NCBI GenBank assembly: GCA_012338575.1
Contig: GCA_012338575.1_3616.1
Length of the DNA stretch: 64,000 nt
Source: a phage
Strand: one strand, 5' to 3'
Below, piece after piece: positions 3,797 to 58,578 of this stretch. The position numbers and the translations under genes were made by a program. Position 1 is the first letter of the stretch, and every line of letters starts with the position of its first letter. A model generated the notes under the pieces. That model was not told the origin of the DNA. It made no database searches and saw only the letters and a list, made by a program, of their open reading frames with translations.

Positions 3797-4168
3797 ATGG
3801 AATTTATTATTTTGGCCGTATTAGTTGCCTTGTTTAACGCCTGGATCGCTGGCAAGATGGGTAGATCCGCCTTTTTATGGTTTATTATATCTATTTTCCT
3901 GGGGGTGGTTGCAACTATTGTACTTGTTATCCTTGCAATTGTTGACAAAGGCGATAATAGAAAGGGTAAAGTATTTTCCGACCTGTATGACGCGCAAACA
4001 TTTGTCAACGCCTATTATAGTGATCTTCCAGTCTCCCTACGCTGCAGCCTTGCACAACAGGTTTTCGATGAAGCTAAAACCAGAGATCACGCCCATGAGA
4101 TTTGTTTAACTGAGGCGGATCGCCTATTTGAGAGGAATAGAAAATATGTGGGCCAGCCGTTTAAATAA
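3797..4168 (+). CDS. membrane protein (two predicted TM helices at N-terminus)
   Basis: ATG 3797 after AAAGAGG; MEFIILAVLVALFNAWIAG... hydrophobic. Confidence 0.5.
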   Translation: MEFIILAVLVALFNAWIAGKMGRSAFLWFIISIFLGVVATIVLVILAIVDKGDNRKGKVFSDLYDAQTFVNAYYSDLPVSLRCSLAQQVFDEAKTRDHAHEICLTEADRLFERNRKYVGQPFK

Positions 4169-4391
4169 TACCACGTTAATTAATCCCTTTGATGAAGATT
4201 TGAAGCCAGCCGCCTGGCGTGATGGATTCAATAACGAACGCTTTATTTTCAGGCCTGATCTTAAGGAATTTTGTAACAATGGATCGAACAACGACAGAGA
4301 TAATTTTTCTTGTGATGTGCGTGGTGATGGTACTCCTGGGGGCCATTGTAAACCACGTCACTACTACCAGGATGAAAGGGGGAGACGATGA
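4146..4391 (+). CDS. hypothetical protein (about 82 aa)
   Basis: ATG 4146 after GAGAGGAA; overlaps upstream stop. Confidence 0.4.
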   Translation: MWASRLNNTTLINPFDEDLKPAAWRDGFNNERFIFRPDLKEFCNNGSNNDRDNFSCDVRGDGTPGGHCKPRHYYQDERGRR

Positions 4392-8001: not shown

Positions 8002-8309
8002 TCGCTATTACGCCAACCGTTTTAGATTGGTATCGGCAACGCATAGCGCCTCCACTGGCTATCTTCAAAGATGCGGAAGCAAAACAACGCCGGATCTCAA
8101 TACATGAGATCATCAACCTTAACGCTGGAGGCACACCATACCGCCCAGGGCCTGGCCGTGAGATGGACAATACATTGGCGATCCTGAAGATACGCCGTAA
8201 ACGGTCCTCCCTTACGCTGGATTCATTACACACAATGCAGTCTCCGTTCCAGGTGACTGGGAAACGGATCGCCAGGTCCTGGACAAAGGCCAATGACCGG
8301 ACCGTATAA
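7998..8309 (+). CDS. hypothetical protein (103 aa)
   Basis: ATGA overlap with upstream gene; SD GGGGG. Confidence 0.45.
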   Translation: MIAITPTVLDWYRQRIAPPLAIFKDAEAKQRRISIHEIINLNAGGTPYRPGPGREMDNTLAILKIRRKRSSLTLDSLHTMQSPFQVTGKRIARSWTKANDRTV

Positions 8310-8527
8310 ATAAAAAGTGTTTTGGTACTGATTTTGGGGTTGACTTGTTCGGCCCCTTTTGCTATTCTTATTAAACGGGCGGCACTTGGGAACAGGGGGA
8401 GACAATCACCAGGCCTGCCTGTCATATAAGAACTATAAAAACCGTTGACATCTGCCAGGGGGTGGGGTAACATTTATCTTGAAGGGGCAAAGGTGCCCAC
8501 ACAACAACCAGAAGAGAGGAAAACACT

Positions 8528-8800
8528 ATGTCAAGCTGGATTAATCAAGAAGTCGAATCACGTTTTAATGCTATTTGGGATCTCATCGAAAAAGAAGACG
8601 GCACATCAAGCCCCTACCTCAACAATTTGGAATTCCATTTTGTGGAAGCGATGAACGCAGAACATGATCACGAAGGTGGTGCGGACGAGTTCGCTAAAGG
8701 GTATGGCTTCAACAATGCCAACGAAATGATCGAGGCGGTTGTACTCCAGGCTGAGGAAGATTATCAATTAAAAACGCTTGAATTCTGCCGCCGTAAGTAA
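8528..8800 (+). CDS. hypothetical acidic protein (90 aa)
   Basis: SD AGAGAGGAAAA; two upstream TTGAC(T/A) promoters. Confidence 0.55.
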   Translation: MSSWINQEVESRFNAIWDLIEKEDGTSSPYLNNLEFHFVEAMNAEHDHEGGADEFAKGYGFNNANEMIEAVVLQAEEDYQLKTLEFCRRK

Positions 8801-8860
8801 TAAGATAATGACACGGGCCGGGAGGCCCACTAATCAGAACCACACAAAGAGGTAAACATC

Positions 8861-9124
8861 ATGAAACGTCTTGATCAGCTTAAACTAGTTCAGTACATGG
8901 CCTACAAAGTTCTTGAAGTCCAAAAAGGTAGCAAAAAAGAGGTTTGCGAGAAAGCATATAAGATCTTTACCCGTAAAAAAGATGATTGGATGTTACGCCA
9001 GACCAAAAAAGCCGATATCCTGGGATACCTGGAAGAAGAGATCCGACTTGAAGAACAAGAAGAGATCCGCCGTAGTGAGGCAGATTATCAGGCAGCTTGG
9101 GAAAACTGGATGAGCAACAAATAA
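8861..9124 (+). CDS. hypothetical protein (87 aa)
   Basis: SD AAAGAGGTAAA; leader hairpin GGGCCGGGAGGCCC. Confidence 0.55.
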   Translation: MKRLDQLKLVQYMAYKVLEVQKGSKKEVCEKAYKIFTRKKDDWMLRQTKKADILGYLEEEIRLEEQEEIRRSEADYQAAWENWMSNK

Positions 9125-9190
9125 TACAACAAGTTACATGGTCAGGGGCAATAAAGCCCCTTGATCGCATAAAAATTATGCTATCCTTGG

Positions 9191-9219
9191 TTGACAAGGA
9201 TCGGCAGTTTTGCTATATT
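9191..9219 (+). promoter_or_regulatory. sigma70-like promoter (TTGACA, 17 bp, TATATT)
   Basis: TTGACA 9191-9196, TATATT 9214-9219. Confidence 0.55.
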
Positions 9220-9267
9220 CTTTTTGAAGGGAAGTTGTAAGAAAATTAACTAAGAGGTAAAAACACC

Positions 9268-9687
9268 ATGAACATTAAATCTAATAATCCGGCATATAGC
9301 TTTGATAACGCTTTTTGTCACGGTCCGGCGGCGAAAGGATTCGAAATCGATGGTAAACTAATTATTGTCAATGTTGACGGGGAAGAGGTTGCAGTATATC
9401 CGGTGGCAGACGTAAAAAGCCGTTTACAATGCCGCATTGATGTTACCGCCTATCAGCTTGATCCGGTCCGCATAGTTGCCCTGGTCTTGGAAGAAGAAAT
9501 TAAAGCCATGCACCATAGCAACAGATTTATTGGTGACGCGCAGGATAATATGAAAGTATGCCGCCATAAAGTTAATGAAGTGCTTAAAGAGTACGGCTAT
9601 AAAGATCTTATGATCAAACGTGAGGAAAAATTCCGCTACCGTAACGACCTGGCAAATCGAATCTATGAAATATACGAATCATTATAA
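9268..9687 (+). CDS. hypothetical protein (139 aa)
   Basis: SD AAGAGGTAAAA. Confidence 0.55.
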   Translation: MNIKSNNPAYSFDNAFCHGPAAKGFEIDGKLIIVNVDGEEVAVYPVADVKSRLQCRIDVTAYQLDPVRIVALVLEEEIKAMHHSNRFIGDAQDNMKVCRHKVNEVLKEYGYKDLMIKREEKFRYRNDLANRIYEIYESL

Positions 9688-9705
9688 TTTCTTAACTAAA
9701 CTATC

Positions 9706-9733
9706 AGGGGCTTTAAAAGGCCCCTTTCTTTTT
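9706..9733 (+). terminator. rho-independent terminator ending the rightward early block
   Basis: AGGGGC-tttaaaag-GCCCCT followed by TTCTTTTT. Confidence 0.65.
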
Positions 9734-10329
9734 GTCTGTATTTCTCCTACCACAAACGGCCCAGCCTGGCAAGTGGAATAATTGACTAGCCATCAATCCC
9801 ACACACTGTACAAATATACATGGAAAATAACTATTGCATAATTTTTCATTGTGTGGTAGCAAGTCCATTTTTACCCGTTTTCTCTCTCAAAATTGCACGT
9901 AATGCCGCTATTGCACAAAATTTAACCTGATGCACATCTTCAATATCTTGTCAACAACTAAAAATCTTTATAAGTCATACACTTACACACTCACAAAAGC
10001 GTGTTCTACGTGAAAAATCGAGTATAACTATAGCCGCCAGATCTCAGAATTTACGTACGCTCACCATTCTATAGTCTGCTAAGTATTTATTCCAACCATG
10101 GAATAACGGAATAGTCAATACCTGCATAAAATAATTATTCGTGTAAACTGCATAACATAAATCAGCTTATGTGTCAACATTCTTGGTAAACAGTCCGAAA
10201 TTGTAACGGTAAGTTATAATAAACAGAGAAATCTTTAGTCGTCTAATGTTTACTGTACATAACTATACTGACTGGAATCATTAGATGACTAAGAGAAAGA
10301 TAAGAAATAATTAACAATACAATTATTTT

Positions 10330-10520
10330 ATCTGTAACAATAAGGCAACTATGCAAACGAATATTATGGCGCGACGGAGTCGCGACATAATATAAAAGCA
10401 GTAACCATCACCCCCGTGATAGTTTGTCTGCAATCTATTAATCAGATCATAGTTGCCTTGTATTCAGTTAATCATGACATAACAAGCAAGGCAACTATAG
10501 ATCTGCTAATAGTTGCCCTG
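10330..10520. repeat. four copies of 12-bp motif ATAGTTGCC(T/C)TG in alternating orientation
   Basis: aaggcaactatg (10334), atagttgccttg (10451), caaggcaactat (10489), atagttgccctg (10509). Confidence 0.6.
10362..10392. repeat. 31-bp near-perfect palindrome
   Basis: TATTATGGCGCGAC-gga-GTCGCGACATAATA. Confidence 0.6.
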
Positions 10521-11359
10521 CTTTTATATTATGTCATAGGAACGCCCGAAGGGGTGACCTAGTCACCTGGCATAGCCAGCGAAAGATTATTAACTTGTTA
10601 ATTGTTAACTTGCTAATTGTTTTCATGCAAACGAATGTCATGGCTTATCCTATCTGTGTAAACAGTTAAGGTGTAAACTATCCAGGCGTAAACAGTCTAT
10701 GCGGGAACAATCTATACGTGAACAGTGAAACATGAAATAATAACAGTCGTTATTGTGTCGAAAGTGTATAAGGTGTATAAGGTGTCAGACAAGTTTTTCT
10801 CCTCTTTGTCAAGTGCTGCATGAAAATTTACAAACTGGTATGGTAGCATTTTTGCGGCCCTGTTTACATTCAGCGATGTATGTATAACCCTTGTTGTGTG
10901 GGCGTTTAGACGTCTGGACGGTCAGAAGTCCGCAGGTTAATATCTAATCTATTGGCTGCTAACTATATCCCACACAAATAGTAAGAAATATAATTGTTAT
11001 GTGCGTAAACGGTAACTCATGTTATCAATCCCTGTATGTATCGCCAGTGGTGCGCATAATGGGTATTATGTTAAATTGCCCGTAATGATAACTATTCTCA
11101 CAATGATAGGTATTCTCATTCAACCACATCAGATAGCTTGCAAATGTTGTGCCACTGTGTGAACGGCCTCGCCTATTAATTTGCCTCACTACCTCGATAT
11201 TTGAGAATTGTTATAAGAATGAGAAGTATTCCCATTCCGTCCGCCTGGCAGCACTCCTGTAGGTCCTGCAAGGACTCTAGCTGAAAGCTAGACCCTTCGG
11301 GCCTCCCTGTAGGTCAGGTCAAAATCGGGGTAGAACTGGGCCTATTTAGATATTTCTGG

Positions 11360-11505
11360 CTGGCTCTTCAGACATGTGTGGGAAAAGCCGACCCCTCCGG
11401 CGGCGGGGAGGGGGTCAATTAAAAAATTTACGTGGTGTATGAAGCGCTCTTCAGGTAAGGCATGTATTATGGGATGAAACCCTCTTCAGGTAAGGATATT
11501 TGTGG
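11360..11505. repeat. repeated CTCTTCAGG(TAAGG) motif cluster with GC hairpins
   Basis: ctcttcagac (11367), ctcttcaggtaagg (11447, 11487), more copies at 11883 and 12543; hairpin GACCCCTCC-ggcggc-GGGGAGGGGGTC. Confidence 0.5.
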
Positions 11506-12254
11506 GTGTGATATTTGCTGGAAAGCCAGATATGACGGGACTCCCGGCGGGGCAGGGGTAGTACAGACAGGGAAAATATGGGGGATGTAGTTGGGTGAAT
11601 TGATCAGACAGGTAGGGTATGGAATATGTTACAAGTATGTTAAATATGGAGGTCGAATATCTGTAGGATTTGTGTGTAAAATCAAAGACTTAAGTGGTGT
11701 TGTGGTATTTTCTATAAATAATTCAAGTTTAATAGGTAATATTTGCCTCTATCCACTTTGTGTGGTAAACAGATTCAGATGAGATTGGTTTACAAGTGTA
11801 TACATAATATACAAATTAAAGATACAAGAAACCCCCCTCCCCCTTCGGCTACCATTCACCTTTTCCTCTGACTGGTACTTAAACACTTATTCAGACTCTT
11901 CAGGTTATCACCCATATATCATATGGCAGTGACTGGTGTCCTCCGGCCCCTCTTTCGTCACCCGTCCGCTTCGCCATGCTAATGCCATAGCCAATGGTTC
12001 GGTTGTTCACCCTGTTCACTCAGGTGTATCTCCATACCCCTTCAAACCGAAGAGAACAGAAAACCCGAATTACTCGGTAAAAGAAAAGAGAAGAACTTAA
12101 TTTTATCAGGATAGGCAAGAATGTCAAGGCATGACTGCTCACTAAACAAGCAAACAGTCATGTGTGGGAGGTAAGTGATTGTGGTGGTAGGAAATTTAGT
12201 TGAAAGATGTGTTATAGGTGCTTCCAGCACTTTAGCCGGGCAGCTAATTGTGTG

Positions 12255-12470
12255 TCAGTCCAGCGGTTCATCCTCTACTTCACTGAAATCAATGTTCATG
12301 GTCTCTTCCCAACCATCGATCTCAGCACAAGAGTGGAGTTCTTTAGGGTTTACTCCCAAAGCCTCAGCAACAGAGTCTATATTTAACACCTCTGGCAGGT
12401 ATGATTCATCGAATTCAAGGTAAATCAGGCCACGAGTGTTGTCAGCTCCACCAAATATTTCTATCTTCAT
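12255..12470 (-). CDS. hypothetical acidic protein (71 aa), last gene of leftward block
   Basis: ORF with SD GAGGAG before ATG. Confidence 0.5.
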   Translation of the reverse strand: MKIEIFGGADNTRGLIYLEFDESYLPEVLNIDSVAEALGVNPKELHSCAEIDGWEETMNIDFSEVEDEPLD

Positions 12471-12591
12471 GAAATCTCCTCTGGAAATGAGAGTGTGAAC
12501 TGGGTTTTATACGTTCCAATGCACAGGAATTATGCACGTTTGCCTCTTCAGGCCATGCTTTAGCATGAGGAACCTGTGTGGGCTCGGTGCT

Positions 12592-12903
12592 TCATAGTCT
12601 ACCACCTCTGAACTCTTCGTGCTCAGGCATAATAGAGAACCAGATATCTACGATGTCTTCCCACGTTAGGTCATCAGCCTCAGGATCTACCTGGAGCGGG
12701 AGCGAAGATGGAGAACCTTCAGAATCGAAGTTTTCCTCTTGCACTGGCTCAGTCAAGGGACATATAGTCACTCCTTTGGATGTCTCTTCAGATGCATGTG
12801 TGTTTATCATGTTCCACCCGTGAGTATTCCGGCAACAGCCGCTATGGACGTAATGATCATCAGGATCACCACCAAAACTTCGGACAATGTTTTCATTGTG
12901 CAC
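12592..12903 (-). CDS. hypothetical protein (103 aa)
   Basis: ORF in leftward array. Confidence 0.4.
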   Translation of the reverse strand: MHNENIVRSFGGDPDDHYVHSGCCRNTHGWNMINTHASEETSKGVTICPLTEPVQEENFDSEGSPSSLPLQVDPEADDLTWEDIVDIWFSIMPEHEEFRGGRL

Positions 12904-13057
12904 TCCATATTCTCCAGACTATGTGTGGATACTATCACTGGAGCGGCAATGTGTCAACAGAAACGCCGCGAGGGTTTGGTTAAAATCCGAGCGTATGGTG
13001 ATTTGGGTCAAAACGGACGTGCGTTCTCGCTACGCTCGAAATGAAAAATATATACAC

Positions 13058-13378
13058 TTAGAGCTTTTTGCGGTCCAGAACCTGCTTACGTTGAATAAAG
13101 TGCATAAACGTCTCAGCCCATGAGCAATTCTGATACTCTCGGTACTTATGCATTGCCTGACGGCTCACACCGTATTCTGCAGCAAATGTGGAGACACGTA
13201 GAAAATCTGGCAGATCATCATCTTCAAAATATACAGTGCTGAGAGCAATATCGTTATCGTCGTATAGAACAATTTTCATAGATGATACCTCAAGATGTTG
13301 GTGGTTTAGGAAAACAGCCAAATTCTTTCTAAAGCGCTCTATAATGAGATTATCTGTACAAGGTATGCAATCGTGCAC
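13058..13378 (-). CDS. hypothetical protein (106 aa)
   Basis: ORF in leftward array. Confidence 0.4.
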   Translation of the reverse strand: MHDCIPCTDNLIIERFRKNLAVFLNHQHLEVSSMKIVLYDDNDIALSTVYFEDDDLPDFLRVSTFAAEYGVSRQAMHKYREYQNCSWAETFMHFIQRKQVLDRKKL

Positions 13379-13434
13379 CAGATAAAGAAAAGGACGCCAC
13401 AGAGCGTCCTAGGTGTCTTAAATTTGATATTTTG

Positions 13435-13746
13435 CTATACCCATGAGGGCTTATCAAGGTTGGAGTAGCTGAAAGGTGTCAAAAGGTGACTGTCAAAATC
13501 TCTCAAACTATCCAGATCTTTTTCCTCGTCCTGACACCATCTGTGCCTACATTTATTGTTGTAGTGCATGGAATGCATAGCGTTCTGCAACTTAACAGGC
13601 ACAAGTGATTCAGGGGTAGATAGTATTGTTGGGTATGCCAGAACCACCTCAAACAGTGGAAACACATCGAAACTAAAGTCTACCTCTGCAGAGGTTGATG
13701 GCATGTAGGAGTATTTAGCCGCCTTTGTAGACATAATCCACCCCAC
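13435..13746 (-). CDS. hypothetical protein (start uncertain)
   Basis: ORF overlapping 3' end of upstream gene; start may be internal Met. Confidence 0.3.
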   Translation of the reverse strand: MGWIMSTKAAKYSYMPSTSAEVDFSFDVFPLFEVVLAYPTILSTPESLVPVKLQNAMHSMHYNNKCRHRWCQDEEKDLDSLRDFDSHLLTPFSYSNLDKPSWV

Positions 13747-14069
13747 ACAGGTTTGATAATACCTTCACCGAATAACTCTTCATATCTAATCTTATCCGGA
13801 TCCCACTCCTGGATAATTTCGAAGACAATATCCAACCCTGGGATAATCACTTCTCCAGTGTCAAGTTTGGCAAGAACAAAACCAGAAGGCTGAATGGTTT
13901 CCCAGTTTCTACGATTGGAATAGAAGACCTCGAAAATATCACCGACCTTGATCTGTTGATCAAGATGCTCAAGGTTCTCTTTCATACGGATGCAGCGGAT
14001 TTTTCGTGCAGGCCATAGACCACCTGCATCACGTTCATTCAATTCTTTTACAGTGATCGGTATACCCAT
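13680..14069 (-). CDS. hypothetical protein (129 aa)
   Basis: ORF in leftward array. Confidence 0.45.
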   Translation of the reverse strand: MGIPITVKELNERDAGGLWPARKIRCIRMKENLEHLDQQIKVGDIFEVFYSNRRNWETIQPSGFVLAKLDTGEVIIPGLDIVFEIIQEWDPDKIRYEELFGEGIIKPVWGGLCLQRRLNTPTCHQPLQR

Positions 14070-54668: not shown

Positions 54669-54743
54669 GCCCTGTTAGCTTAGTGGATAAAGCAGCGGCC
54701 TTCTAAGCCGTTGACACTGGTTCGAGTCCAGTACGGGGTGCCA
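54669..54743 (+). tRNA. tRNA-Arg (anticodon TCT)
   Basis: Manually folded cloverleaf: acceptor GCCCTGT/ACGGGGT, D-arm GCTT-AGTGGATA-AAGC, anticodon loop CTTCTAA, T-arm ACTGG-TTCGAGT-CCAGT, CCA encoded. Confidence 0.8.
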
Positions 54744-54873
54744 AGTTCTTTTTAATGTAGCTTACTTTAGCAGAGTAAATCTTCGGCAAGTGGCGGTAAC
54801 CACTTTACCGATACCTCATAGTTAGTGGTGAGAACACTAGCTATTTTAAAAAGAATTTAAATATTAGTATTTA

Positions 54874-54961
54874 GGTGAGTTAATTCCGTAGGGGTAGCGG
54901 GGCAGACTGTAAATCTGTTATCATTGCGATTCGGGTGGTTCGACTCCATCACTCACCACCA
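54874..54961 (+). tRNA. tRNA-Tyr (anticodon GTA), long variable arm
   Basis: Acceptor GGTGAGT/ACTCACC, anticodon loop CTGTAAA, T-loop GGTTCGACTCC, CCA encoded; 85 nt plus CCA. Confidence 0.8.
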
Positions 54962-55075
54962 AATTTATATTTTTAAATGCATAAATCATACAGGTAATGG
55001 CATTGATATTTATCGTCGTTTATACTAGTCACTAACTGCTCGAAAATCAGTGTCATTATCAGTATTGTTTATAAA

Positions 55076-55166
55076 AGAGGGTAGGGAGCAATGGTGCTCA
55101 AGCGGTCTTGAAAACCGTCCCGTTGAGGATGACTCGATGATGGTTCGATTCCATTATCCTCTGCCA
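55076..55166 (+). tRNA. tRNA-Ser (anticodon TGA), long variable arm
   Basis: Acceptor AGAGGGT/ATCCTCT, anticodon loop CTTGAAA, T-arm GATGG-TTCGATT-CCATT, CCA encoded. Confidence 0.75.
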
Positions 55167-55264
55167 TATTGTTGACCTTGTAATTAAGCGAAAGCCGGAA
55201 GCAGAACCGGATTATCAAATGTTACAGTCGTCATCGCCGACTAGCAACATGGTCAACATACTGA

Positions 55265-55361
55265 GCTAGGTAAGCCCTTTGGCAAGGGCGAGGATTTTTA
55301 ATCCTGAAAATAGACGAGGTAGTCGTTGAATACATAGGTGGTTCGATTCCATCACCTAGCA
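55265..55361 (+). other. aberrant tRNA-like element (canonical acceptor, D- and T-arms; anticodon region replaced/expanded)
   Basis: Acceptor GCTAGGT/ACCTAGC, D-arm GCCC-TTTGGCAA-GGGC, T-arm GGTGG-TTCGATT-CCATC, but middle is AGGATT-TTT-AATCCT hairpin plus about 30 extra nt; no encoded CCA. Confidence 0.4.
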
Positions 55362-55368
55362 CCTTTTT

Positions 55369-55444
55369 GCTGATGTAGCACAATTGGTAGTGCAATTGAT
55401 TTGTAATCAATAGGTTGCAGGTTCAAGTCCTGCCATCAGCACCA
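55369..55444 (+). tRNA. tRNA-Thr (anticodon TGT)
   Basis: Acceptor GCTGATG/CATCAGC, D-arm GCAC-AATTGGTA-GTGC, anticodon stem ATTGA/TCAAT loop TTTGTAA, T-arm GCAGG-TTCAAGT-CCTGC, CCA. Confidence 0.85.
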
Positions 55445-55445
55445 T

Positions 55446-55520
55446 GGCCCTGTAGCTGGAAGGTTCAAGCAAGCGACTCATAATCGCCAGACGGTGGTTC
55501 AATTCCACCCAGGGCCACCA
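55446..55520 (+). tRNA. tRNA-Met (anticodon CAT; elongator or Ile2-type)
   Basis: Acceptor GGCCCTG/CAGGGCC, anticodon loop CTCATAA, T-arm GGTGG-TTCAATT-CCACC, CCA; paired 1:72 argues against initiator. Confidence 0.75.
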
Positions 55521-55531
55521 AATAGTAAATA

Positions 55532-55608
55532 CTCCGCGTAGCTCAGCTTGGTAGAGCGCCTGATTTGGGATCAGGAGGTCGAGTGTTCGAATCACTCCGT
55601 GGAGACCA
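55532..55608 (+). tRNA. tRNA-Pro (anticodon TGG)
   Basis: Acceptor CTCCGCG/CGTGGAG, D-arm GCTC-AGCTTGGTA-GAGC, anticodon stem CCTGA/TCAGG loop TTTGGGA, T-arm GAGTG-TTCGAAT-CACTC, CCA. Confidence 0.85.
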
Positions 55609-56428: not shown

Positions 56429-56712
56429 GAGTTGCTACACTGTTTATTGCGTGCTTGTTATTATGTGGGTGTGCAACCAGTGTTGAGAAAGAATACAAGA
56501 TTGACCCTCCAGATGTAGGAAGGTTGATTGTTAAACCCCCGGAAGGTGCCATGAAACCACCTGCTAAAGCTATACCTTTAAAGAAAGGTGCGCCAGATGC
56601 GGTGAATTCTGGCATTATGAGGGATAATAATCTGTCTTGTAGCAATGATAGAGCTAAATTGATCATTTTGCAAGACTATATTAGAACACTGTTTCCAAAG
56701 GAGAGAGGTTAA
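56425..56712 (+). CDS. o-spanin (Rz1-like outer-membrane lipoprotein)
   Basis: Signal peptide MRVATLFIACLLLCGC with lipobox Cys; Pro-rich mature part; ATGA overlap with i-spanin. Confidence 0.55.
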   Translation: MRVATLFIACLLLCGCATSVEKEYKIDPPDVGRLIVKPPEGAMKPPAKAIPLKKGAPDAVNSGIMRDNNLSCSNDRAKLIILQDYIRTLFPKERG

Positions 56713-57137
56713 TGTCTAAGATTTACGGACCGTGTTCTGAAAAGCAGAAGATGATCCTCGAAAACGATGCAGATATTTTGGTAATCGGCGGTGCCGCAGG
56801 GTCTGGCAAGTCGTTCCTTTTGCAGTTGATGCCGCTTAAAATTATTGATGACCCCCACAGCTCTGTGGTTATGTTCCGAAGAACAACTCCACAGTTGGAG
56901 GGTGAGGGTGGACTATGGCCTAAAGCAGTAGCTATTTATAGTGATCTGCCTGAAAACATTAAGCCAAAGTTCAGAGAGAAGGATCATAAGTTCATTTTTC
57001 CACGGTTTGATCCTAACACTGGTAAGTGGGATAGAAGCAAAAAGGGAGCTGTTGTAAAATACTGCCACATGGAGTATGTACAAGATAAGCTTAACCATCA
57101 AGGGCTTGAGTACACCATGGTTTGCTTCGATGAGGGT
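56712..57137 (+). CDS. terminase large subunit, exon 1 (ATPase Walker A/B)
   Basis: Walker A GGAAGSGKS, Walker B MVCFDEG; reading frame hits stop at 57138-57140 inside intron. Confidence 0.75.
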
Positions 57138-57456
57138 TAATTTGTAGCTCTCGTAAAACCTCCCTAATTGCGGGGAAATCTTTATTATTGACACCACCAA
57201 CCTGTTATGGTAACATGATAGAGGCTTCGAAGAGAGATCGAAGGTATGGTAACAGTGTGTTAATTTAGATAATCCGCAGCGAAGCATCCGAGGGGATGAA
57301 CGTTCAACGACTAGTCGAAAGACGTAGAATCAAGCGATTCGAAACGGGAGGGTAAGCGGTTGTTGTCGCTTATAAGATATAGTCTGGTCTGCATGGAGAC
57401 ATGCAGCTGCCTGAAAATGGCGGGGCAAGACTAGCGACCTTGCCCGAACATAAACG
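57138..57456 (+). mobile_element. group I intron (ORF-less, td-like) interrupting terminase large subunit gene
   Basis: 319 nt without ORF; begins TAATTTG after exon T, ends ...GAACATAAACG; contains AGTCTGGTCTGCATGGAGACATGCAGCTG, AACGACTA, CGAAACG strings recalled from T4 td intron; splicing 57137/57457 is in frame. Confidence 0.75.
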
Positions 57457-58578
57457 ACACAATTCGAATGGGAGCAGATAGACTACCTGATGTCTCGTCT
57501 GCGATCTCAGTCAAAGTATCCATCAAGGATGGTTATCAGCTGTAACCCCGATTCAGAACACATGCTTGCCAAACTGGTTAGATGGTGGTTGGACGATGAA
57601 GGGTATCCAGATCCGGAGAAATGCGGTAAGAAAAGATATTTTATCCGACGCGACGGTGAATTTATTTGGGGAGACTCTAAGGAAGAGTTGATAGAGAAAT
57701 ACACCACGGTTAACGGACTGGGTGTAGAGATCAAGCCAAGACCGTTGTCATTCTCGTTCATAGGCGCAACAATATTCGATAATCCTGTCTGTTTGAGAGA
57801 CAACCCAGAATACCTTGCTTTCCTTGAAGGCCTGCCAGAACTTGAAAAAGCCCAGCTTCTTCATGGCAACTGGTTTGCAAAGCCTGAGGGTGCAAACTAT
57901 TTTCAAAGATCTTTCCTTCGTGATGCCGATAGAGTACCCCTTGGATCAGTATCTTGCAGGGCATGGGATAAGGCAGGAACCGAGAGAACTTCCGGTAATA
58001 AATTTCCTGACTTTACCGCCAGTGTTAAGGTAAGTAAAGATAGCGACGGCTTTTATTACCTGTCCGGTGATTATTGTCCTGAGAACGTGGATGACGGGAG
58101 GTATTCCACAGGTCTGGAAGGTAAGTTCTGTAAAAAGGCTGGTGAACGAGATGTGATCATCAGGAAACAGGCGCAGTTTGATGGTGATGATTGTATAATC
58201 GTATTCTCTGTGGACCCCGGTCAGGCAGGTAAGAGTGAGTTCTTAACATCCTCCAGATCCTTGCTTGCCGAAGGGTTTAGGGTTGAAGAAGACCCAATGC
58301 CTTCCAACAAATCTAAACTGACAAGGTTCTCACCTTTTGCCAATCTTGCCCAACAAGGAATGGTTAGGATTGTAAAATCCAGTTTCCATCCTGATACTCT
58401 GGAAGCATTTCTGACTGAACTTGAAAAATTCAACGGGGAAAGATCAACATTTAACAGGAAAGACGACTGGGCCGACTGTGTAGCTTCTGCGATTAATTTC
58501 CTGGAGAAAGAGGAGGTAGCACTTCCTTGTGTGATTCCATCAATCTCATCACCTTCTATGTTCAAGCGTTTTATCTAA
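57457..58578 (+). CDS. terminase large subunit, exon 2 (nuclease domain)
   Basis: Frame open from 57457 (TQFEWEQIDYLMSRL...); 373 aa C-terminal part; followed by terminator. Confidence 0.7.
   Translation, partial: TQFEWEQIDYLMSRLRSQSKYPSRMVISCNPDSEHMLAKLVRWWLDDEGYPDPEKCGKKRYFIRRDGEFIWGDSKEELIEKYTTVNGLGVEIKPRPLSFSFIGATIFDNPVCLRDNPEYLAFLEGLPELEKAQLLHGNWFAKPEGANYFQRSFLRDADRVPLGSVSCRAWDKAGTERTSGNKFPDFTASVKVSKDSDGFYYLSGDYCPENVDDGRYSTGLEGKFCKKAGERDVIIRKQAQFDGDDCIIVFSVDPGQAGKSEFLTSSRSLLAEGFRVEEDPMPSNKSKLTRFSPFANLAQQGMVRIVKSSFHPDTLEAFLTELEKFNGERSTFNRKDDWADCVASAINFLEKEEVALPCVIPSISSPSMFKRFI

Follow-up and report, generated by a model that had tools for sequence, protein, structure and literature searches.

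Terminal repeat and a candidate structured element in the gene-free region of an rV5-like coliphage chromosome

What purpose is served by the region of about 2.5 kb, free of credible genes, at which the two gene blocks of an rV5-like coliphage converge? The region lies in a stretch of 64,000 nucleotides of phage DNA (contig GCA_012338575.1_3616.1), hereafter the window, along which all positions are numbered. A first, sequence-only reading had singled it out as rich in repeats and had proposed that it is a replication origin, a packaging site or a genome terminus. The phage belongs to the genus Vequintavirus: the interval 9700-12260 matches 122 phage records, nearly all from Vequintavirus, at 90-96% identity, and 97 records cover at least 80% of it. 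In the 2013 paper on rV5, the counterpart of 9688-12254, i.e., the gap between genes 163 and 164, was drawn as a "non-coding" box; a change in GC skew was noted there and no function was offered. Our analysis leads us to conclude that the region is very probably the non-coding terminal region, or concatemer junction, of the Vequintavirus chromosome, packaged in the style of T7 with a short, exact direct terminal repeat (DTR).

The evidence for a terminus is a homologue, at 10788-11245, of a DTR that was determined from sequencing reads in LL12, EdH4/HdK5, Gotham and other relatives. In LL12 the DTR was determined by PhageTerm to be 459 bp long, and it aligns to 10788-11245 with 94.3% identity; Korf et al. 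reported a terminal redundancy of 458 bp in both EdH4 and HdK5; and the Gotham record carries an annotated repeat_region at 1-459 and again at 136567-137025, i.e., at both ends. The records of HdK5, bov10K2 and bov22_2 begin at the DTR boundary, that of ECP2303 ends there, and the DTR homologue matches two places in the HdK5 record. That is, independent records start or end at positions mapping to 10788 and 11245, as is expected of fixed, sequence-defined ends, and the DTR edge is nearly invariant in 16 Vequintavirus genomes. Read-start peaks or twofold coverage at the repeat have been reported for the relatives LL12 and KPP-1. Since the window holds the DTR in a single copy, its assembly is collapsed or circularised, and the virion chromosome is predicted to end at 10788 and 11245. 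A cos site does not fit, because the relatives carry at their ends a duplication of 458-459 bp instead of cohesive ends. A terminal repeat of 458 bp is already known for the genus, and the published repeats of LL12, EdH4/HdK5 and Gotham agree with that of the window in length (458-459 bp), in boundaries and in their position in the gap, at 94-97% identity and with no material difference; those reports give the coordinates of the repeat only, and the elements that flank it are not described.

The same layout recurs in two related genera, Mydovirus and Seunavirus. The Klebsiella phage KPP-1 (Mydovirus) has been reported to carry a DTR of 514 bp, with doubled read coverage and a PhageTerm call of T7-type. 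This DTR sits in a 1.8-kb gene-poor gap between convergent blocks, and the record of KP12 begins exactly at a KPP-1-type DTR edge. The KPP-1 gap has DNA homologues (70-80%) in Seunavirus phages such as PVP-SE1, 4MG, GAP31 and others, the gene-free gap of PVP-SE1 measuring 2.27 kb. All these loci are inverted relative to the window, an orientation that follows from a 37-nt match in the DTR core and from the note that gp183 of PVP-SE1 resembles gp167 of rV5; a tblastn comparison of the open reading frames (ORFs) flanking the gap in the window with the KPP-1 locus gave no real homology.

A profile of the Mydovirus/Seunavirus gaps finds colinear blocks in the window, namely the DTR core and the DTR edge. 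The core, ATTTAACATAATAC.C.TTATGCGCACCAC on the minus strand at 11045-11081, is conserved across the genera (nhmmer E = 4.6e-6) and also matches KPP-1 by blastn. The edge carries the end motif TTTGTAAAT..CTTGACA..GAGG.GA.AA..TGT on the minus strand at 10780-10835 (nhmmer E = 0.002), immediately before the cut. The cut falls at the same aligned position after this motif, within about 1 nt of the KPP-1 DTR end, and the TTGACA at the edge is not accompanied by a -10 element in Vequintavirus. At the opposite edge, GTGCT..A, followed across the boundary by G.CGGAC.G, is common to the window and to Mydovirus/Seunavirus. Because the cut-site motifs are conserved across three genera, end formation looks sequence-specific.

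To follow conservation within the genus, the 16 Vequintavirus genomes were aligned over 8200-13750 and nucleotide diversity (pi) was computed by segment. The coding flanks mostly show a pi of 0.03-0.10, and so does the DTR. The sequences that adjoin the DTR are far more variable: pi is 0.14-0.44 at 10500-10790, beside one edge, with indels and changes in repeat number, and 0.28-0.40 at 11250-11350, beside the other, with about 40% gapped cells in the 11250-11299 bin. Two non-coding blocks stand out by their low diversity. Block A, at about 10350-10500, has a pi of 0.012-0.033. Block B, at 11850-12150, is near-invariant (pi 0.000-0.030, the lowest in the 5.3 kb of alignment). The segments that border the DTR directly on its two sides are thus fast-evolving repeat spacers.

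What, then, is conserved in block A? The answer comes largely from the other two genera. In KPP-1 (locus L009), a 21-nt perfect inverted repeat, 4139-4159 with 4324-4344, encloses nested hairpins; its distance from the DTR edge is 309-514 bp, and it stands on the side equivalent to that of block A. A folded element of this kind, 200-259 nt long, is present in every Mydovirus and Seunavirus genome tested. Its layout consists of a closing stem P1, a hairpin P2, a stem P3 of 13 bp with a variable insert, and a hairpin P4. Among 14 distinct homologous sequences, 97.9% of the cells at paired positions pair, compared with just 22-47% in controls in which the partner was slid. Double-sided changes occur in 22 of 59 pairs, versus 8.8 +/- 1.7 in shuffles, and none of 500 shuffles reaches the observed value. 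P1 contributes strongly, with compensatory changes in 11 of its 18 pairs; its arms are 116-217 nt apart and yet covary fully, and in a divergent element (L037) the sequence of P1 is wholly different and still fully paired. Nine aligned genomes show no variation in P3 or in the junction residues CGCGAACGAAA and GAGTTAC. G·U cells outnumber A·C cells by 41 to 1, 13 of the 41 coming from one invariant pair. In each of these nine genomes, and in L037, one strand is more stable than the other by 8-14 kcal/mol, and the more stable strand corresponds to the minus strand of the window.

In the window, the cluster of inverted repeats at 10330-10545 forms a far more stable fold than shuffled sequences do (z = -9.0 for the plus and -9.8 for the minus strand), and the minus strand is the more stable (-87.5 vs -74.6 kcal/mol). 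A covariance model from Mydovirus/Seunavirus matches 10377-10542 on the minus strand at full length with 20.8 bits. With filters off, nothing else in the 64 kb scores as high, the next unrelated match reaching 8.1 bits. The conserved multi-helix element that we recognise at 10335-10545 on the minus strand, about 170-210 nt, comprises P1, P3 and P4 and allows an alternative fold. In the alignment to the model, an 18-nt perfect inverted repeat (10518-10535 with 10384-10401) becomes P1, a pair of ATAGTTGCC copies (10487-10498 with 10449-10460) becomes P3, and a 9-bp hairpin at 10403-10424 falls in the P4 region; no clear counterpart of P2 is left. Of the sequence itself, the window keeps GTTAC ahead of P1' and portions of P1, and its P3 is not the same as that of the other genera. 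The element shares with its presumed homologues the P1-closed layout, the inward-reading strand and the proximity to the DTR edge (253-404 bp). The remaining ATAGTTGCC copies (10509-10520 and 10342-10353), together with a palindrome at 10361-10393, permit the second fold, which is that of minimum free energy (-87.5 kcal/mol, compared with -82.4 kcal/mol for the P1-closed fold). Block A is the probable Vequintavirus counterpart of the Mydovirus/Seunavirus element.

Searches for the element elsewhere returned little. Rfam (15) scans, run with gathering and with E-value thresholds, gave nothing relevant: there was no match over 9600-12400 at E up to 5, except a sub-threshold suhB hit over a terminator, and none at E up to 1 in the loci of KPP-1, PVP-SE1 and 4MG. 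When bacterial genomes were scanned with the 19-mer that is invariant in P3, 4 matches came up, where about 4 are estimated by chance from the size of the collection, and by the covariance model none of the 4 carries the element. Literature searches found neither transcriptomics nor a description of the element in these phages, and it appears to be undescribed in the sources searched. As a separate observation, relatives carry insertions at sites that correspond to 10480 and 10615 of the window: a 33-nt hairpin-forming insert, TAAACTCAGGCAAAGCCTTCGTCTCAAGGGTGT, is found in the P3 loop of LL12 and phita32, and SYGMH1 has one like it elsewhere. The insert may be a very small mobile hairpin.

These results change how the repeats of the region are read. 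The sequence-only reading had compared them to the initiator-binding sites known as iterons, and most of its inventory stands. The four alternating ATAGTTGCC copies are indeed present, at 10344(-), 10449(+), 10490(-) and 10509(+), and 4 of the 5 copies in the window fall in the gap region, compared with 0.2 expected from the share of the region. Their reading as initiator sites is unsupported: their orientations alternate, and two of them form a stem of the conserved fold, the other stems of which covary in related genera. The GTAAACAG-type repeats are real as well, 5 of 6 copies in the window lying within the region, with a cluster at 10656-10730 in a 15-bp phase. No set of at least three conserved direct repeats, the mark of an iteron origin, was found; the units of the GTAAACAG array do run in one direction and in phase, but they are hypervariable in both number and sequence. 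A palindrome that had been given as 31 bp long is present at 10361-10393, with arms of 15 nt, a 3-nt spacer and one mismatch; its outer, AT-rich half is found in this genome alone. The left arm of 15 relatives diverges at 10363-10365, which breaks the outer pairing and leaves an 8-bp GC core. These three positions read ATT here, GGC in 14 of the 15 relatives and G.C in one, so that in this genome the 8-bp GC hairpin has been lengthened into the longer palindrome.

The GTAAACAG and GTGTATAA arrays fall in the most variable part of the region, the spacer that adjoins the DTR. This hypervariable spacer, 10536-10780, holds tandem ATTRTTAACTTGYTA at 10586-10615, the 15-bp-phased GTAAACAG-type array and two copies of (A/G)GTGTATAA at 10763-10780. 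The last is the tandem repeat that had been placed at 10750-10776; it exists, with the unit AGTGTATAA/GGTGTATAA, at 10763-10780 instead. Farther from the DTR, the imperfect inverted repeat of TTAGTCGTCTAATG (10236-10249) with CATTAGATGACTAA (10279-10292), spanning 10236-10292, was recovered with 13 of 14 positions complementary. Directly outside the other DTR edge, a second hypervariable spacer (11258-11335) contains small hairpins. Beyond it, 11364-11500 carries CTCTTCAGG(TAAGG) units, which read CCTGAAGAG on the minus strand, and a GC hairpin among them at 11390-11416, both as previously noticed. The CTCTTCAGGTAAGG units occupy 11439-11460 and 11474-11495 (22 nt, 91% identical), additional CTCTTCAG copies lie at 11364 and 11896, and 3 of 5 copies of CTCTTCAGG in the window are in the region. 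On the equivalent strand of Mydovirus/Seunavirus the CCTGAAGAG motif is met again, as CCTGAAG(A/T)G, and so is a CCCCTCC..GGAGGG hairpin.

Block B lies on the far side of these units and begins at a promoter. Just past the end of the leftward gene block, at 12127-12100 on the minus strand, is a sigma-70-type promoter, TTGACA-16-TG-n-TAAAAT, with 11 of 12 matches and an extended -10 element, aimed at the DTR. An equivalent promoter occupies the same relative position in 8 of 9 Mydovirus/Seunavirus loci. From the promoter, block B extends about 260 nt downstream. We considered block B as a structured RNA and rejected this, the fold z-scores (+0.60 for the plus and -1.17 for the minus strand) not being significant. 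A search of IMG/VR with a 24-mer from block B returned 2 contigs only. Just left of the block, about 250 nt downstream of the promoter, is a C6TC5 run at 11832-11843, which is G5AG6 on the minus strand; no such G-run was seen in Mydovirus or Seunavirus. Runs of G occur at R-loop replication origins (ColE1, mitochondrial CSBII), and the run at 11832-11843 resembles them.

How might these parts work together? In the mechanism that we propose, virion DNA would start at 10788 and end at 11245, and the intervening 458 bp would be duplicated at both ends, as the homology to read-based determinations suggests. Sequence-specific cuts at the conserved motifs would generate these ends. The folded element, about 250-400 bp from one DTR edge, would act as RNA or as one displaced DNA strand, and would be read from the terminus into the genome or, after the joining of genomes, through the junction. 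Acting in cis, it would help either to recognise or mature the junction, in packaging initiation and DTR duplication, or to prime replication. The promoter in the opposite flank would fire toward the DTR on the same strand as the fold. In the packaged chromosome the promoter is near one end and the fold near the other, so that a single transcript could span both only after genomes have been joined; such a transcript is an attractive but speculative idea. In its specific form, which we put forward as a tentative proposal, the cluster of ATAGTTGCC and inverted repeats is an undescribed, strand-specific structured RNA of about 170-260 nt, conserved next to the terminal repeat in at least three Vequintavirinae genera, transcribed inward or across the junction from the promoter in the opposite flank, with a cis-acting part in the start of packaging, in the duplication of the repeat or in the priming of replication.

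Several points weigh against this proposal or against the terminus that underlies it. The covariance match in the window is modest, its 20.8 bits corresponding to a rough E of 0.007 over the window as a whole, and layout alone can earn a cluster of palindromes a score in a covariance model. Within Vequintavirus the element is almost invariant and thus too uniform for its pairing to be judged, and the alignment behind the covariation statistics had itself been fitted to the model. No convincing sigma-70 promoter was found between the DTR and the folded element, and no transcript data were found in the sources searched. As to the termini, we infer the ends of this genome from relatives that are 92-97% identical here, and in one announcement the PhageTerm result given for Vequintavirus genomes was 'circular permutated'; the records of that announcement have since been revised, and their new versions start at the DTR edge.

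A possible, though somewhat doubtful, alternative is that the element acts as single-stranded DNA, on the strand displaced by a fork coming from the terminus, where it would load a gp4-like primase-helicase or prime the lagging strand. The single-strand origins (sso) of rolling-circle plasmids and the primosome sites of phiX174/G4 are strand-specific, heavily paired and non-coding, and 150-300 nt long. The element is like these in being specific in strand and orientation, heavily base-paired and placed in non-coding DNA; unlike it, they serve circular single-stranded intermediates, of which none is known for these phages. Strand-specific folding that tolerates G·T(U) pairs would suit such a role, and so would the fact that no nearby promoter was found; moreover, the folded strand would, in the presumed geometry, be the lagging-strand template of a fork moving inward from the near end. 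According to the rV5 paper, rV5-like phages have a T7-type replisome. On the other hand, a U·G pair and junction residues that are invariant are met more typically in RNA, and a transcript could come from the conserved promoter, which is on the same strand. Nor is any T7-type primase-helicase known to require a structured loading site.

We consider it unlikely that the region is chiefly a replication origin, one in which either the 15-bp-phased GTAAACAG repeats are iterons or the promoter at 12127-12100 makes a primer RNA or R-loop, much as at T4 ori(uvsY), T7 phiOL/phiOR or ColE1; such an origin could coexist with a terminus. Direct repeats in a 15-bp phase are enriched here, but no part of the region is less conserved than the GTAAACAG array, which differs in copy number and sequence between near-identical genomes. 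The sign of the GC skew switches at the gap, as the rV5 paper also noted, but the switch coincides with the change in gene orientation. A strong, conserved promoter that is aimed at no gene and followed by the near-invariant block B would make sense at an origin, and its transcript would carry the G5AG6 run; against this, the run was not seen in the other two genera and block B has no significant fold. Finally, no initiator gene was recognised beside the array, and the flanking proteins have no Pfam match.

Improbable, in our view, is a third possibility, that the inverted repeats are duplex DNA sites, either operators or boxes for the small terminase subunit, which bind a dimeric protein without any folding. 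Alternating 12-mers near a packaging end do resemble the box arrays of pac and cosB, but full covariation of P1 arms so far apart and the different but perfectly paired P1 of L037 speak against it, and the asymmetry of G·U to A·C is not expected of duplex sites. Lastly, headful, permuted packaging, with the DTR an artefact and the region a terminator-rich gap between convergent units, is highly improbable: terminators are present and the 'circular permutated' announcement spoke for it, but at least three groups independently report the 458-459-bp repeat with the same boundaries, record ends are fixed across laboratories, which does not suit permuted ends, the records of the announcement were revised to start at that very boundary, a related genus has doubled coverage over its DTR, and the boundary motifs are conserved across genera.

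We turn now to the surroundings of these elements. The rightward block ends with an ORF of 139 amino acids at 9268-9687 on the plus strand, in which no Pfam domain was found, followed by an intrinsic terminator at 9706-9725 (plus strand; 8-bp stem, 4-nt loop and T-run). The final gene of the leftward block, at 12255-12470 on the minus strand, encodes a hypothetical protein of 71 amino acids; it is annotated in all relatives inspected and intact in 15 of 16. Between the two, the view that there is no credible ORF was borne out, the ORFs inside the gap not being preserved in the 16 related genomes: that at 11591-11782 is intact in 1 of 16 and that at 9713-9868 in 2 of 16. Only the ORF at 11936-12100 is kept, which is uninformative because its block is nearly invariant anyway. 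Small protein genes inside the gap were therefore considered and rejected, ORFs being preserved only where the DNA itself is invariant; annotations of small ORFs in the gap also disagree between database records. The GC content drops to 0.36 over 10001-11000, with no discrete unwinding element delimited there.

The flanks themselves are not uniform. The stretch 9150-9690, with the ORF at 9268-9687, is a swap cassette that about one third of the 16 relatives lack or replace with unrelated sequence (pi near 0.5, about 31% gapped cells). In the leftward block, about 250-300 bp at 13050-13300 are missing from about 93% of the aligned relatives; this stretch, with the ORF at 13058-13378, is thus probably a genome-specific insertion or accessory ORF.

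The DTR contains repeats of the form AATGA(T/G)A..TATTCYCA at 11084, 11102, 11202 (inverted) and 11218, spanning 11084-11234, and similar AATGAGAAT units occur in the KPP-1 DTR. The AATGATAA..TATTCTCA units (11079-11120 and 11216-11234) match the consensus of the E. coli Fur box at 12-14 of 19 positions, and the KPP-1 P4 hairpin (4294-4316 of L009) matches it at 16 of 19. We nevertheless rejected the AATGATAA..ATTATCATT units as Fur boxes and judge the likeness incidental, because in other genera covarying changes take the P4 hairpin away from such a sequence; AT-rich palindromes are the probable cause.

Elsewhere in the window, a group I intron (Rfam RF00028, 57128-57406, 83.6 bits) interrupts the gene for the large terminase subunit, TerL (56712-58578), so that Terminase_6N is split between the ORFs 56712-57140 and 57490-58578. 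This agrees with the introns in TerL reported in the rV5 paper, although here one intron only was seen, and no ORF for a homing endonuclease. A cluster of transfer RNA (tRNA) genes at 54669-55608 includes, according to ARAGORN, an odd tRNA of 99 nt with a 4-base anticodon (55265-55363), and Rfam adds a tRNA at 54874-54958 that ARAGORN missed. Among the database matches to the region of this E. coli phage are 19 'Campylobacter phage' records (MG0656xx), those listed having about 92-95% identity and those shown being unannotated; they are probably mislabelled or contaminant rV5-like genomes.

How does the region compare with systems in which ends and end-proximal elements are understood? The concatemer junction of T7/T3 combines a short exact DTR, pacB, an inverted repeat close to the junction with a hairpin intermediate, and transcription across the junction. 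The Vequintavirus region is like it in having a short exact DTR that arises from sequence-specific cuts, non-coding cis elements beside the repeat, and a promoter that reads toward and through the repeat. It is unlike T7/T3 in several ways: the sequences are not similar, the phage is a myovirus whose TerL is of T4 type, and both flanking blocks are transcribed toward the ends; furthermore, the structured element is a covarying multi-helix fold and not a simple palindrome. The packaging RNA (pRNA) of phi29 is structured, about 120-170 nt long, encoded near the genome end, and conserved in structure while its sequence diverges. Our element is likewise structured, near a genome end and divergent in sequence with its structure kept. 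It differs from pRNA in that Rfam scans of the region and its homologues gave no family match (E up to 1-5; the library is assumed to include pRNA), the terminase is conventional, and its transcription is a prediction. If the RNA reading is true, the element would be analogous in function, though unrelated, to the packaging RNA of phi29 or to the junction signals of T7, and this in phages that use a terminase.

The DTR is of practical value only: it tells where to open the genome, 458 bp of which are missing from the collapsed assembly. To our knowledge, almost no cis elements for end formation have been defined in short-terminal-repeat phages other than T7/T3. Here, a fold, cut-site motifs and a promoter stand in a fixed order around the repeat in several genera of phages used in therapy and biocontrol, and they offer concrete sites to mutate in order to learn how the terminase of a myovirus locates and duplicates the genome ends. 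They also show which parts of the "non-coding box" to retain when these phages are engineered.

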